DNA from: an uncultured Alphaproteobacteria bacterium
GTDB taxonomy: Bacteria > Pseudomonadota > Alphaproteobacteria > Rhizobiales > Xanthobacteraceae
NCBI GenBank assembly: GCA_963778925.1
Contig: CAVZWE010000020.1
Coordinates: forward strand, 137,087 to 201,086
Direction of reading: 5' to 3'
Length of the DNA: 64,000 bases
Shown piece after piece: positions 52,670-56,324 of this stretch. The notes beneath the pieces are model-generated. The model was not told the DNA's origin and did not search any database. It saw only the letters and a list, made by a program, of their open reading frames with translations. The position numbers and the translations under genes were made by a program. Numbering within the stretch: the stretch's first letter is position 1; the number at the start of each line of letters is the position of its first letter.

Positions 52670-53593
52670 TTACCGGATGCTGCTTGCAAACGACTGCAAC
52701 GCGTCCGGGGACCAGCTTGCGATCGTCGCTTCGGTACGATAGCGCGGGAGATGATCCTCGAGCGAGTAGCAGACGCAGAGCGCGAGGCTGGCCCAGACCG
52801 CGGCACTGAAATAAAGCGACATCCAGGCAATCTCATCCTTCCACTCCGCAAGGTCGTGCGTCACGATCCAGCGCGTGCACACGTCACGGAGACCCTCGAG
52901 AGGTCCGAGAAGCTTGCCGCCGTCGCCGGTCTCGGCCCGCCATCGGCTCAGATACATCGGGACATCGACGGTCATGAGAAACGCCAGATAGCCCGTAATC
53001 CCGATGATCGTGACGACGAGGATCACGCGAACCTCACCATCGAACTCCGGCAGCAGCCGGCAAAGGCCGGCCCCGACGATGAAGAAGGCAACCGCCCATA
53101 TCGAATTTTCGATGGCGTTGCCCAGATAGTGGGTGGTCAGCACCGCGTACCATGAGAAGCATTCCGCGATCAGGATCAGCGGCACGATCACCCACGCGGC
53201 GTTCAAGGTGGTGTCCGCTCCCGTCATCGTACCGAGCTGGTACAGGATGATCGCCCACTGCGCCGCGAAGCAGACCTCGGCCACGGTTGCCACCGACCGG
53301 CCGACGACGACGCTCGACAGCCAGGTGTCGAACAGGCAGATCCGCTGAACATCCGCGCGCGGAAGGAACGACCTGAATGCGCAGCCGAAAACATAGGCCG
53401 CACAGAGGAGAAGCATGAGCCCGATGCCGGGTGTGCCGCCGGAACTGCCAACCGGCTGTTCATGGAGCTGGCGGTACAGCACGAACCAGACCGCGATGTT
53501 GACGCCGCTGACCAGCGTCAACAGACCCCACCACCAGGCCAGGGGATTTGACCAGGCCAGGGAAGTTGACCGCGCCCGCCATTCCAAACTCAT
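52670..53593 (-). CDS. Conserved multi-pass membrane protein
   Basis: 6-7 TM segments; GCAFRSFLPRADVQRICL, GRSVATVAE. Confidence 0.75.
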   Translation of the reverse strand: MSLEWRARSTSLAWSNPLAWWWGLLTLVSGVNIAVWFVLYRQLHEQPVGSSGGTPGIGLMLLLCAAYVFGCAFRSFLPRADVQRICLFDTWLSSVVVGRSVATVAEVCFAAQWAIILYQLGTMTGADTTLNAAWVIVPLILIAECFSWYAVLTTHYLGNAIENSIWAVAFFIVGAGLCRLLPEFDGEVRVILVVTIIGITGYLAFLMTVDVPMYLSRWRAETGDGGKLLGPLEGLRDVCTRWIVTHDLAEWKDEIAWMSLYFSAAVWASLALCVCYSLEDHLPRYRTEATIASWSPDALQSFASSIR

Positions 53594-53821
53594 CGACCGC
53601 TCCACATTTAATCGAACTGACATCCGATTGTAGAAATTCTGTCATAAATCGCGGCCTGTCACGACAAAAATATGTGTGCGGCGGGTGCTTTCGGGGGTGA
53701 TAGCGGGCCGCGTCTTTGGGCGGCGCCGACAGCGTGGATCGGTCCGGGACAAGCCAGGCCTCGCGACTGCCGGCTAAATGCTCAATACCGGAAGCATCGG
53801 CGTGCAGACGGTCGGGTTCGC

Positions 53822-54823
53822 CTACGATGCGCGGATGACTTGCTGTCTTCCCCGTTCGGCAGACCCTTCCAGTGCTTGATGGCTTCGCTCCTCGCGATCA
53901 CGGCAAGTGCGCCGCGCGATTTCAAGATCAAGCCGCGCGGCGAGCTCCGGGCTCACTTCCGTCATCGGCAGCCGCAGCTCGGCGCTGTCGATCAACCCCG
54001 TGCGCCACAGCCAGTACTTGATCGGCGCCGGGCTCGGCTCGGAAAACAATAAGCGCGTGAGCTCGGCAACCGACCGCCAAAGCGCCAGCGCGGCGTCGCG
54101 CTGGCTGGCTGCCAGCAGCGTCCACGCCTGGGCGAAGGTTTTGGTTTCGATATGCGCCGATGCCAGGATGCCGCCGTCGGCGCCATCGCAGAGTGCTTCG
54201 AAATATTGCGCGTCCTCGCCGGTCAGCACGGCGAAGCCTTGCGGGCGCCGGCGCAGGAGATCGAGCGACTGGCTGCGGTCGGCGGAGCAATCCTTCAAGC
54301 CGATGATGTTGGGATGGTCGGCCAATCGCAGCATCCCCTCGTTGCCGAGATTGACGCCGGTCCGGTAGGGAATGTTGTAGAGCATCACAGGATGCCGGGC
54401 CCGATCCGCGAGCGCGCCAAAGTGCAGCTCCATCCCGCGCTGCGACGGCCGCGAATAATACGGGCAGGAAATCAGATATCCGTCGATCGGCCAGCCCGCC
54501 GTTCCGTCGAGCGTGCCCAGCAATGCGCGGGTGTTGCTGCCGGACAGGCCGAGGCAGACCGGCAAACGCTTGGGTCCGATCTCGTCGCGGACCGCGAACA
54601 CAAGCCGTTCGGTTTCCTCGGGCGCAAGCGTGAGGCTTTCGCCTGTGGTGGCTGCGAGCACCAATCCATCGACAGGAAGCGCCGCGTAATGCCGCACCAG
54701 CCGCCGCAGCGAGGTCTCGTCGAGTTCGCCATGGCGGAACGGCGTGACCAGCGGCAACCAGAGGCCATGCAGTCCATTTTGAAGATCGCTATTTCGAAGA
54801 TCGGAAAATCGAGGGTCAGTCAT
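53822..54823 (-). CDS. dapA: 4-hydroxy-tetrahydrodipicolinate synthase (DHDPS)
   Basis: LVTPF, ATTGES, PYYSRPSQ, LYNIPYRTG, GLKDCS. Confidence 0.85.
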   Translation of the reverse strand: MTDPRFSDLRNSDLQNGLHGLWLPLVTPFRHGELDETSLRRLVRHYAALPVDGLVLAATTGESLTLAPEETERLVFAVRDEIGPKRLPVCLGLSGSNTRALLGTLDGTAGWPIDGYLISCPYYSRPSQRGMELHFGALADRARHPVMLYNIPYRTGVNLGNEGMLRLADHPNIIGLKDCSADRSQSLDLLRRRPQGFAVLTGEDAQYFEALCDGADGGILASAHIETKTFAQAWTLLAASQRDAALALWRSVAELTRLLFSEPSPAPIKYWLWRTGLIDSAELRLPMTEVSPELAARLDLEIARRTCRDREERSHQALEGSAERGRQQVIRAS

Positions 54824-54864
54824 GGCTCCATCTCCTGCGGTTTTTGAGCCGGAGACGGGACAAT

Positions 54865-54893
54865 AAAAAACCCCGTCCAGACGGCGGGGTTTT
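54865..54893 (-). terminator. Intrinsic terminator in the dapA leader
   Basis: AAAACCCCG / CGGGGTTTT followed by a U-run on the minus strand, 40 nt before the dapA start. Confidence 0.75.
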
Positions 54894-54917
54894 AAGGATC
54901 GGTTCGGGCGAGAAGTC

Positions 54918-54995
54918 TTATCGCGCGCGTCGATCCGAAGCCCCCGGATGGGGAGCTTTTTTCGACAGCACTGCCAAGCACGAATTCGTGATCAT
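54918..54995 (-). promoter_or_regulatory. Putative leader peptide MITNSCLAVLSKKAPHPGASDRRAR of a dapA attenuator
   Basis: 25 codons with tandem AAA AAA; mutually exclusive hairpins downstream. Confidence 0.55.
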
Positions 54996-55072
54996 GGATG
55001 GATGATGGTTGGCGCCACTGCGCCTGTCAACGGGGCGGAACAGGTGCAGCCGGATGCAGAAAGTCCGAAACC

Positions 55073-55210
55073 AAAAAAAAGCCGGGCTCGAAAGAGCCCG
55101 GCTTAAGGTATTGGCCACGTGAGGCCGACACAATCACCTTCCAAGAGGGATTACTGAACGCTCGCGCCACTGGAGGAGGGGGACAAATGCGCAACGCGAA
55201 TGCTCAGCGT
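55073..55210 (-). ncRNA. Putative ~138 nt small RNA with anti-SD CCUCCUCC motif (alpha-r7/BjrC1505-like?)
   Basis: TTGCTG-N18-CATAAT promoter-like site, CCCCCTCCTCC motif, strong terminator GCCGGGCTC-TTTC-GAGCCCGGC-U8; family name is recollection only. Confidence 0.55.
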
Positions 55211-55400
55211 AGAAACATTATGGTCCTTGCGAGCGGCCTGCAGCAACCACTTGGGCCGCATGTCAGTCATGCGGAGACCGGGGGCTATGTTACAGATCCC
55301 ATCCCGCCGCCGTCGGATGCAAACAAGGGAAGACGAATCTAGCAATCCGGTGATGCGCGGTTGAGAAATTCTCTCCCGCCACCGGATCAGTAACAAAAGG

Positions 55401-56324
55401 TTACGACGGCCAGCGCTGCGCCTTGCTCACCACGAAGTCGCGAAACACCTGCACCCGCGCGACTGACTTCAACTCTTCGGGATAAACGAAATAGGTATCG
55501 ACCTGGATCGAGTCGGTCTCGCCGAACAACTGCACCAGGCGGTTATTCTCCTCGACCAGATAGTCCGGCAGTGCGGCGATGCCGAGGCCCTGCTGACAGG
55601 CGCGGACCAGGCCCAGAATGTTGTTGACCTTGAAATAGGCCTCGCGCGGACCCGAGCCGTTGCGGCCGGCATCGATCAGCCAGCTCCGGTTCTGCAGATG
55701 GGGTTGTACCTGCGCGTCGCCGAGCATGATGATGCGGTGCGCGTCGAGGTCGTCGAGCGTGCGCGGCGTGCCGAAACGCTTGATGTATTCCGGCGAGCAA
55801 TAGGCATGGAAGCCGATCGAGAACAGCTTGCGCTGGATCAGGTCGGGCTGGGTCGGCTTGCGGGTCAGGATCGCGACGTCGGCCTCGCGCATCGAGAGAT
55901 CGAGCTGCTCGTCGGTCACGATCATCGAGATCCGGATTTCCGGATAGAGCGCGGTGAACTCGTGCAGCCGCGGAATCAGCCAGTTGATGCCGAGCGCCGG
56001 CGGCGTCGTGATCTTGAGATCGCCGCTCGGCCGCTCGCGGCTGTCGGTGAGTTTCGCGCGCGCCGCCTGCAGCTGCATGAACACGTCATGCGCGGTGCGG
56101 AACAACAGGTCGCCCTGCTCGGTGAGAATGAGGCCGCGGGCATGGCGGTGGAACAGCGACACCGAGAGCTCCTGCTCCAGCGCGCTGACCTGTCTGGAGA
56201 CGGCCGACTGCGACAGGCCGAGCTGTTCGCCGGCATGCGTGAAGCTGCCTGCTTCAGCCGCTGCGTGAAACACCTTCAGCTTGTCCCAGTCCATATCGGT
56301 AAATCCATCGCGGGTTCGAGCCAT
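55401..56324 (-). CDS. lsrB: LysR family regulator (LsrB/VtlR orthologue)
   Basis: MDWDKLKVFHAAAEAGSFTHA; conserved trxB-lysR linkage with divergent lrp. Confidence 0.8.
   Translation of the reverse strand: MARTRDGFTDMDWDKLKVFHAAAEAGSFTHAGEQLGLSQSAVSRQVSALEQELSVSLFHRHARGLILTEQGDLLFRTAHDVFMQLQAARAKLTDSRERPSGDLKITTPPALGINWLIPRLHEFTALYPEIRISMIVTDEQLDLSMREADVAILTRKPTQPDLIQRKLFSIGFHAYCSPEYIKRFGTPRTLDDLDAHRIIMLGDAQVQPHLQNRSWLIDAGRNGSGPREAYFKVNNILGLVRACQQGLGIAALPDYLVEENNRLVQLFGETDSIQVDTYFVYPEELKSVARVQVFRDFVVSKAQRWPS

Follow-up and report, generated by a model that had tools for sequence, protein, structure and literature searches.

Leader-peptide attenuation is textbook knowledge, with described cases for Trp, His, Phe, Leu, Thr and Ile/Val, and lysine control is ascribed to riboswitches, feedback inhibition and protein regulators. 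The survey of Vitreschak et al. (2004) is said to contain attenuators for Trp, His, Thr, Phe and the branched-chain amino acids and none for lysine. Here we describe the region in front of a dapA gene, encoding 4-hydroxy-tetrahydrodipicolinate synthase (DHDPS), on a stretch of 64,000 nucleotides (nt) from an uncultured alphaproteobacterium of the Xanthobacteraceae (contig CAVZWE010000020.1 of assembly GCA_963778925.1, positions 137,087 to 201,086), which will be referred to as the window. We consider it likely that dapA is controlled here by a ribosome-mediated leader-peptide transcription attenuator which reports the supply of charged tRNA-Lys. A first-pass annotation of the window, made from the letters alone, had proposed a lysine-sensing attenuator at this site and knew of no described Lys leader-peptide attenuator for dapA in alphaproteobacteria. 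This agrees with the literature searched here, which yielded neither a Lys leader-peptide attenuator nor an attenuator of any kind before dapA.

The classical enteric attenuators (trp, thr, his, leu, pheA, ilv) resemble the dapA leader in several respects. They combine a short leader containing codons for the end product with 1:2, 2:3 and 3:4 pairings that exclude one another, an intrinsic terminator ahead of the structural gene, and a stop codon that lets the terminating ribosome block region 2. The dapA leader differs in its amino acid, lysine, and its target, in having no Shine-Dalgarno (SD) sequence and a start near the 5′ end of the transcript, in its small number of cognate codons (one to five Lys codons only) and in an added SD-sequestering hairpin past the terminator; no sequence or Rfam relationship to these systems was found.

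A leaderless attenuator RNA is known from Sinorhizobium meliloti, where, according to PMC10117765, the trp attenuator RNA (rnTrpL) is a leaderless mRNA starting with the trpL AUG; unlike in the dapA leader, its sensor codons are those for Trp and its target is trpE(G). The 14-amino-acid trpL peptide and the terminated RNA have proven functions in trans (PMC6614838, PMC7298713). PMC10117765 also describes SEP5, a translated small open reading frame (ORF) whose codons include six for Thr and three for Lys and which lies in the 5′ untranslated region of a gene called aspartate dehydrogenase, which its authors suggested to be a leader peptide of the Thr/Lys pathway and reported to be conserved only in Sinorhizobium. 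As described there, its Thr/Lys codon mix resembles the asd leaders found on the dapA-type scaffold (see below), but SEP5 belongs to a different gene, has a mixed codon set and is reported from Sinorhizobium only; the resemblance is one of descriptions.

The lysine riboswitch (L-box, RF00168) likewise controls the lysine pathway, by way of a terminator or by sequestering the SD. It is a large RNA which binds a metabolite and needs no translation, whereas the dapA leader has a conserved ORF instead. A search of positions 53500 to 55900 of the window against Rfam at E up to 10 returned only terminator-driven chance matches, with no lysine riboswitch and no T-box, and a scan of 14 related loci at the gathering score gave nothing on the leaders; by these comparisons the element is neither a lysine riboswitch nor a T-box. 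With TnaC and SpeFL the leader has in common a short ORF, a downstream transcription that would be set by the position of the ribosome, and a conserved peptide end. In those systems the ribosome is arrested at the stop codon in dependence on a ligand, and termination is by Rho; the terminator of the dapA leader is intrinsic and its peptide end is common to leaders for different amino acids.

Results

The spacer between a LysR-type gene (56324–55401) and the DHDPS gene (54823–53822) of the window is 577 nt long, lies on the minus strand and contains two separate modules. The first closes with a strong terminator (55104–55072), which parts the leader promoter from the preceding transcription unit, and the second is the dapA leader. 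Its promoter matches 10 of 12 positions, and the promoter scan gave no other promoter-like site in the region. The leader and its target comprise the following features.

55030–55002, minus strand: sigma-70-like promoter of the leader transcript (−35 TTGACA, 55030–55025; N17 spacer; −10 CATCAT, 55007–55002)
54995–54918, minus strand: leader ORF of 25 codons plus stop, peptide MITNSCLAVLSKKAPHPGASDRRAR (ATG 54995–54993, TAA 54920–54918; ORF list and conservation)
54966–54950, minus strand: region 1, GUCGA-AAAAAA-GCUCCCC, 5′ strand of the extended hairpin 1:2 (fold, pair counts)
54962–54957, minus strand: putative regulatory Lys codons AAA AAA, codons 12–13 (conservation and enrichment; codon swap in relatives)
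54958–54938, minus strand: hairpin 1:2, AAGCUCCC(C)/GGGGGCUU (fold)
54945–54929, minus strand: region 2, GGGGGCUUCGGAUCGAC, with region 1 or region 3 as partner (constrained folds, pair counts, duplex energy)
54901–54883, minus strand: region 3, CGAUCC-UUAAAA-CCCCGCC, with region 2 (antiterminator) or region 4 (terminator) as partner (constrained folds, pair counts)
54936–54931 with 54901–54896 and 54946–54942 with 54889–54885, minus strand: antiterminator arms GGAUCG:CGAUCC and CGGGG:CCCCG (complementarity)
54893–54865, minus strand: intrinsic terminator, AAAACCCCGCC-GUCU-GGACGGGGUUUUUU (fold)
54878–54865, minus strand: region 4 and U-tract, GGACGGGG with a conserved bulged A, then UUUUUU; 3′ arm of the terminator (fold, pair counts)
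54859–54849, minus strand: nearly invariant anti-SD box CCCGUCUCCGG, 3′ of the terminator (RNAalifold, pair counts)
54835–54828, minus strand: SD of dapA, GGAGAUGG, paired by the anti-SD box in the unconstrained fold
54823–53822, minus strand: dapA, DHDPS of 333 amino acids, ATG at 54823 (TIGR00674 and PF00701)

All coordinates in the first-pass annotation proved correct. The 25-codon leader ORF lies on the minus strand at 54995–54918 with tandem AAA-AAA codons at 54962–54957, and the 1:2 hairpin, the 2:3 antiterminator pairing and the 3:4 terminator with U6 are all present where they had been placed; the promoter, the missing SD of the leader, the outer 1:2 helix and the anti-SD box past the terminator had gone unmentioned. 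The putatively cognate codons are clustered at the 5′ strand of the first hairpin, and the stem AAAACCCCGCC/GGACGGGGUUUU with its U6 run forms an intrinsic terminator between leader and dapA.

The regulated gene had been called a DHDPS gene with intact catalytic motifs, and protein comparison bears this out. The protein scores 217.9 bits against TIGR00674 (dapA), a small margin over the cutoff of 206.15, and also matches Pfam PF00701; its best PDB matches are all DHDPS enzymes. Residues T44, Y107, Y133, R138 and K161 align with E. coli DapA. An exact look-up of the protein gave no recorded entry, and by its neighbouring genes the locus is Bradyrhizobium-like. Judged from its sequence, the gene product is thus a DHDPS, with a score above the equivalog cutoff and the catalytic Lys, Tyr, Thr and Arg kept.

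Relatives of dapA were collected by scanning one genome per species, which gave 56 loci encoding related DHDPS, most of them from Bradyrhizobium, Afipia and Nitrobacter and some from distant Alphaproteobacteria (Rhodopila, Roseomonas, Azospirillaceae, Stellaceae). Cultivable carriers of the leader include Afipia massiliensis DSM 17498 (L054), Bradyrhizobium sp. URHD0069 (L005) and Roseomonas nepalensis S9.3B (L031). TTGAC is located 133–154 nt ahead of the terminator core in 51 of the 56. Among Nitrobacteraceae loci the whole leader is approximately 75–84% identical, level with DHDPS itself (64–84% at the amino acid level). In the distant taxa the leader is kept at dapA although the upstream genes differ, so it belongs to dapA and not to the neighbourhood. 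Conservation in more than 50 loci places the element far beyond chance, the counts of related leaders being not phylogenetically independent.

Lysine codons are present at the 5′ foot of hairpin 1 (residues 6–15) in every one of the 51 distinct intact dapA leaders. At least two are found in 44 of these and an adjacent KK pair in 36, so that a lack of conservation of the KK codons, which would have refuted the proposal of the first-pass annotation, was not observed. As had been stated there, AAG is the usual Lys codon at this locus (36 AAG vs 14 AAA in five neighbouring genes); over all 60 scaffold leaders AAA occurs 85 times and AAG 26 times. Distant leaders switch from AAA to AAG (AAG AAG in L031, CGA AAG in many others), and some carry extra Lys codons (KLAKAKK, AKSKK, KSIKSK). 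Examples of such peptides are MITCCCKLAKAKKSPIKG..., ...LAKSKKLPIPG..., ...AKSIKSKPSP... and ...IAKSRKPGPLPG....

Metagenome contigs were scanned with the terminator core of the distant leaders, CCCCGCCGG-N3-6-GACGGGG. The scan added three dapA leaders (L068, L090, L149) and, unexpectedly, also found the scaffold ahead of thrS and asd. These loci share traits which were not part of the search pattern: TTGAC, in most members at approximately 138–142 nt upstream, a start codon some 35 nt later, an ORF of 24–25 codons, the CCCC...GGGG hairpin and the GCGCGCGCUGA end. The leader peptides and the Lys and Thr counts in residues 6–15 are as follows.

thrS leader peptides: MSGIGRTATTTTTPAGGVSGGRAR; MNGLDRNVATTTTTPGTGVSGGCAR; MSGSGRILVTTTSTPGRGVSGGRAR; MNKLRSAAVTTTATAYGGSPAGCAR; MKKILTAITTTTTRIGGPCQSFVF
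asd leader peptides: MIRSTQKRKTALKTPPGGFGIALR; MLLSAPTTTNTKRCSSGAVRSCCC; MFCRVNKRTWIITKPFGGASWAYAC; MFGWMKRATMSTKPSVGVPRMCAC
dapA leaders (n = 51), residues 6–15: Lys 103, Thr 16
thrS leaders (n = 5), residues 6–15: Lys 0, Thr 25
asd leaders (n = 4), residues 6–15: Lys 8, Thr 10

The enzyme encoded by asd, aspartate-semialdehyde dehydrogenase, is common to the Lys, Thr and Met branches. At the level of sequence the pattern leaves no ambiguity: the codon cassette goes with the pathway to which the gene belongs, with Lys before dapA, Thr before thrS and both before asd, which is a hallmark of codon-sensing attenuators. Like the sequence features, their conservation and the pairing potentials, this swap of codon type with the type of gene is directly seen in the loci, and we regard it as the strongest evidence for the proposed codon-sensing attenuation. 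Together with the Lys codons and the 1:2/2:3/3:4 geometry, it lends comparative support to the interpretation of the dapA leader as a lysine attenuator.

The thrS scaffolds, with runs of 4–6 Thr codons, were found at L123:971–1138, L141:3829–4000, L168:7724–7892, L061:140–309 (minus strand) and L134:3748–3914, and also in L110. The threonyl-tRNA ligase of L061, L134 and L110 is a short form beginning from the catalytic domain, without the N-terminal domains (TIGR00418 positions about 170–550). Those before asd lie at L160:7520–7686 (minus strand), L108:6100–6266, L130:3455–3624 and L162:1476–1642, and in L076, where the upstream part is cut; their codons are mixed Lys/Thr, plus Met in L162. 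Further relatives of the scaffold with the same terminator core and a ...FRVR-stop end occur in L071, L139 and L059. These leaders are rich in Thr, Ile and Cys (e.g., MRDFDRTTTICTSQILES...) and precede a small ORF starting MW(N/Y)(Y/F)..., the frame of which differs among the contigs.

The minimum-energy fold of positions 54860–55000 (−52.1 kcal/mol, z = −2.86; 2 of 200 shuffles fold as well) contains hairpin 1, a GGAUCG/CGAUCC hairpin and the terminator. An outer 1:2 helix, in which GUCGA (54966–54962) pairs with UCGAC (54933–54929), extends region 1, and the Lys codons consequently sit in the internal loop of a long 1:2 hairpin. Pairs were counted on an alignment of 39 leaders. The outer and inner helices of hairpin 1:2 are paired in 93.1% and 88.3% of the alignment cells, respectively, and 6 of their 12 pairs show changes on both sides, which gives compensatory support. 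For the terminator helix the value is 96.1%, and for the two antiterminator helices 96.9% and 82.7%. Taken as whole structures, the terminator state reaches 93.6% of paired cells and the antiterminator state 91.9%, compared to 21–58% with the partners slid. Terminators in the other loci were defined by a custom regular expression and not by the terminator scan, which did not list the leader terminator because of the bulge in its stem; a few distant loci, e.g., L034 and L037, have a weak U-tract or none.

The inner 2:3 helix varies by lineage yet stays complementary (GGAUCG:CGAUCC, CUUGA.GGAG:CUC.AUCAAG, UGCA:UGCA, CCGG:CC.AGG). With GGGG:CCCC excluded, this duplex is more stable than shuffled sequences in 58 of 60 leaders (mean z = −1.96). 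Constrained folding was carried out on 49 leaders under three conditions: a ribosome with its A site at the first Lys codon, a ribosome at the stop codon, and no ribosome. When the ribosome mask was placed at the Lys codon, at least 5 of the 7 core bases of the terminator 5′ arm paired with region 2 in 48 of the 49 leaders. Under the other two conditions this arm stayed mostly unpaired. In these computations the 1:2, 2:3 and 3:4 pairings are thus mutually exclusive, with a predicted outcome set by the position of the ribosome.

No SD sequence stands in front of the leader ATG at 54995. The start codon follows the −10 box by 6 nt in the window and a −10-like hexamer by 6–8 nt across the loci, and its offset from the T of TTGAC is 35–37 nt in virtually all loci (n = 51). 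Two independent contigs of soil metatranscriptomes start 2 nt and 4 nt 5′ of the ATG. The spacing of the start site, the contig ends and the missing SD together point to a leader ORF that is leaderless or nearly so. One of the two contigs crosses the terminator into the start of dapA; these data are assembled contigs only, from which termination and readthrough are not quantifiable. Near-identical words were found only in soil and peat metagenomes and metatranscriptomes, and no RNA sequencing run of an isolate with this locus was found.

An intact ORF of 22–28 codons is present in 46 of the 51 genome loci carrying the scaffold. The 51 distinct intact dapA leaders all retain the start codon, the length of the ORF and the place of the stop codon. 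Spacings between anchors inside the ORF change only in steps of three: the ATG and GAAAAA are 32 or 29 nt apart in 37 of 40 loci, and GAAAAA and the stop codon 43 or 40 nt in 36 of 38. Outside the ORF any length occurs, the distance from stop codon to terminator taking every value from 25 to 32 nt and all three classes modulo 3. From the conserved start and length, the codon-sized insertions and deletions and the RNA in soil metatranscriptomes we infer that the leader ORF is putatively translated. In 50 of the 60 scaffold leaders the last sense codon encodes Arg, with all four CGN codons and all three stop codons in use, and 38 of the 60 end in RAR-stop. This end is common to the thrS leaders and hence unable to confer specificity for lysine; it may be due to the GCGCGC hairpin at the stop codon, or to a programmed slowing of termination which keeps the ribosome on region 2. 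In L051:2800–3000, the KK codons and the RAR-stop sit in different frames.

Past the terminator, RNAalifold predicted unprompted a helix between the anti-SD box and the SD of dapA, which is paired in 95.2% of the cells. It is the UCUCC of the box that pairs with the SD. The same box contains CCCGUC, the complement of GACGGG in the 3′ arm of the terminator, bulged A included (96.6% of cells). In unconstrained folds the SD was paired in 40 of 49 leaders vs 26 of 49 with the antiterminator forced, which is mixed support for a release of the SD. The complementarity suggests, with weak support from folding, that antiterminated transcripts would expose the SD of dapA and that leaky readthrough transcripts would not.

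The scheme that we infer involves translation of the leader, pausing at its Lys codons, a response to lysine and a coupling of the anti-SD box to the arm of the terminator. Transcription would begin at or within a few bases of the AUG at 54995, and ribosomes would load on the leaderless 25-codon ORF. With plentiful Lys-tRNA, the ribosome would reach the stop codon (54920–54918) and cover the 3′ half of region 2 (GGAUCGAC); region 3 would then pair with region 4, and the terminator with its U-tract (54893–54865) would halt the polymerase, leaving an RNA of approximately 130 nt. If the leader is not translated at all, region 1 would pair with region 2 and the terminator would form again. When Lys-tRNA is scarce, the ribosome would pause with AAA-AAA (54962–54957) in its decoding centre and cover region 1. 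Region 2 would thereby be left to pair with region 3 (GGGG:CCCC and GGAUCG:CGAUCC), no terminator would form and the polymerase would enter dapA. A second, translational layer may be added by the pairing of CCCGUCUCCGG with the SD of dapA; on antiterminated transcripts the CCCGUC of the box would pair instead with the freed 3′ arm of the terminator, and translation might be favoured there.

Discussion

Several observations weigh against a lysine attenuator of the classical kind. The sensor is small, with two Lys codons and in a few lineages a single one (KN in L008, L013 and L040; RK in L041, L043 and L048). The leader frame is broken or shortened in five loci (L011, L016, L017, L032, L049), all of which come from one series of metagenome-assembled genomes (MFD...); assembly indels are a possible but unproven explanation, real decay being the other option. 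The conserved Arg-stop end is unaccounted for by a simple attenuator model. The terminator conformer is thermodynamically favoured in constrained folding even with region 1 masked, so the switch must be kinetic, as in classical attenuators. Compensatory pairing, which had been named as a check in the first-pass annotation, was borne out for hairpin 1:2, whereas for the antiterminator covariation among close relatives was not significant, with two pairs changed on both sides and 221 of 500 shuffles matching this. Since the antiterminator pairs are nearly invariant within the Nitrobacteraceae, the covariation test is uninformative there.

The same features might be read as an attenuator that depends on ribosomes but senses general translation capacity or coupling, with Lys merely tolerated and AAAAAA serving as the loop or spacer of hairpin 1. 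This would fit the lineages with just one or two Lys codons, the Nitrobacteraceae run UCGAAAAAAG, which is conserved as nucleotides and flanked by the GUCGA:UCGAC helix, and the occurrence of CGAAA in two different frames in the two groups. Yet Lys is kept through the change from AAA to AAG and through extra Lys codons in distant leaders, and Thr runs (thrS) or mixed Lys/Thr codons (asd) follow the pathway of the gene at the same position, which makes a sensor without amino acid specificity unlikely. An arrest peptide of the TnaC/SpeFL type, in which P-x-P-G followed by D-R-R-A-R-stop would halt the ribosome on the stop codon once a metabolite, for instance lysine, is bound in the exit tunnel, the halted ribosome then setting the RNA fold, draws on the Arg-stop end and its use of all CGN and stop codons. 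SpeFL ends in ...NAR-stop, which resembles the end of the leader. Nevertheless, we regard such arrest as very unlikely: an (R/C)AR-stop end is also found in the thrS leaders and hence cannot encode lysine specificity, asd leaders end otherwise (e.g., ...CAC-stop), P-x-P-G follows from the CCCC...GGGG hairpin sequence, the GCGCGCG stretch also takes part in a local hairpin, and the terminator is intrinsic, with stem and U-tract, and not Rho-dependent as in tnaC and speFL.

The RNA of approximately 130 nt, with its own promoter, its own terminator and high sequence conservation, could in principle be mainly a small RNA acting in trans, or the mRNA for a functional peptide of 25 amino acids, and merely lie upstream of dapA; the terminated trp attenuator RNA and peptide of S. 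meliloti, which act in trans (PMC6614838, PMC7298713), set a precedent. We give this very little credence, as the element accompanies dapA even where the genomic surroundings are unrelated, and the pairing of anti-SD box and SD ties it to the downstream gene; a role in trans would moreover be additional to the role in cis and not an alternative to it. Scarcely credible at all is a metabolite riboswitch, or a leader that binds a protein or a tRNA, with an incidental ORF. The high nucleotide conservation of the untranslated parts would suit it, and a terminator with SD sequestration makes up typical expression platforms; however, there is no Rfam match (lysine riboswitch and T-box included) at E up to 10 in the region or at the gathering score in the 14 loci, and a fixed start, a fixed ORF length, codon-sized indels and a codon swap by gene would be unexpected. 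The swap of the codon cassette is hard to reconcile with either a riboswitch or a lysine-specific arrest peptide.

A broader version of the lysine attenuator is conceivable, although we regard it as doubtful. The dapA leader would be one member of a so far undescribed, modular attenuator scaffold of the Alphaproteobacteria in which only the cassette is swapped (Lys for dapA, Thr for thrS, Lys and Thr, with or without Met, for asd), in which the Arg-stop end serves as a built-in termination pause that times the switch, and in which the abundant terminated RNA or the peptide also acts in trans like rnTrpL and peTrpL. The parts of such a scaffold would be the leaderless ORF of about 25 codons, the CCCC/GGGG hairpin, the GCGCGC-Arg-stop end, the CCCCGCCG...GACGGGG terminator with its bulged A, and the anti-SD box.

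Two further explanations were considered and rejected. Regulation by the upstream LysR gene does not fit, as this gene is co-oriented and not divergent and the trxB-lysR pair is absent from distant leader-bearing loci. Programmed frameshifting or slippage on the A6 run is contradicted by a heptamer that is off the X XXY YYZ frame, by the hairpin beginning within the run, and by the AAG or single Lys codons of distant leaders.

The first module of the spacer extends over 55072–55286 on the minus strand, with a conserved core of approximately 140 nt (about 55215–55072) that includes the terminator at 55104–55072. The core is probably a small RNA. A possible promoter of its own, TTGCTG...CATAAT, was read by eye, and the module folds with z = −4.74, with the anti-SD-like CCCCCUCCUCC shown in a 20-nt loop. 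In the Nitrobacteraceae the module is conserved together with the synteny of lysR and the leader, and contigs covering it have a depth of 13–18 in one soil RNA sequencing run. No Rfam family matched it at the gathering score, the suhB/mmgR match being weak at 22 bits. Its identification (55215–55072) with the published small mRNA rreB was rejected, because it has neither a 17-nt SD nor a 14-codon ORF. In six loci (L005, L009, L018, L023, L026, L050), approximately 70–180 nt of extra DNA lie between this module and the leader promoter, which indicates that the small-RNA module and the leader are independent units.

The DHDPS linked to the leader evolves much faster than its neighbours, with 64–84% amino acid identity across the relatives vs 86–97% for the flanking LysR and TrxB. 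The protein of the window has P, T and L at the positions aligned with H53, H56 and E84 of E. coli DapA, which belong to the allosteric lysine site. The leader-linked enzyme may be an accessory isozyme, possibly insensitive to lysine. Downstream of dapA, a multi-pass membrane protein of 317 amino acids is encoded on the minus strand (52670–53623). It has no Pfam or NCBIfam match, and as no counterpart was found across the 56 related loci, it appears to be a lineage-specific neighbour.

Conclusions

What appears to be new in the putative attenuator described here is its lysine specificity, the dapA target, the leaderless leader ORF, the added translational lock and an uncurated scaffold family which seems to serve thrS and asd as well. 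Rfam 15 has no entry for this family, which could help to annotate small ORFs and premature terminators better in these genomes, and the combination of a leaderless start with an SD-sequestering hairpin offers test cases for the coupling of transcription and translation control. The reuse of the scaffold before thrS and asd represents a natural codon-swap series, by which the specificity of the sensor is directly testable. If confirmed, a Lys-codon attenuator before dapA would extend the amino acids known for attenuation to lysine and would explain how many soil Alphaproteobacteria without a lysine riboswitch at dapA tune the entry to the diaminopimelate/lysine branch.

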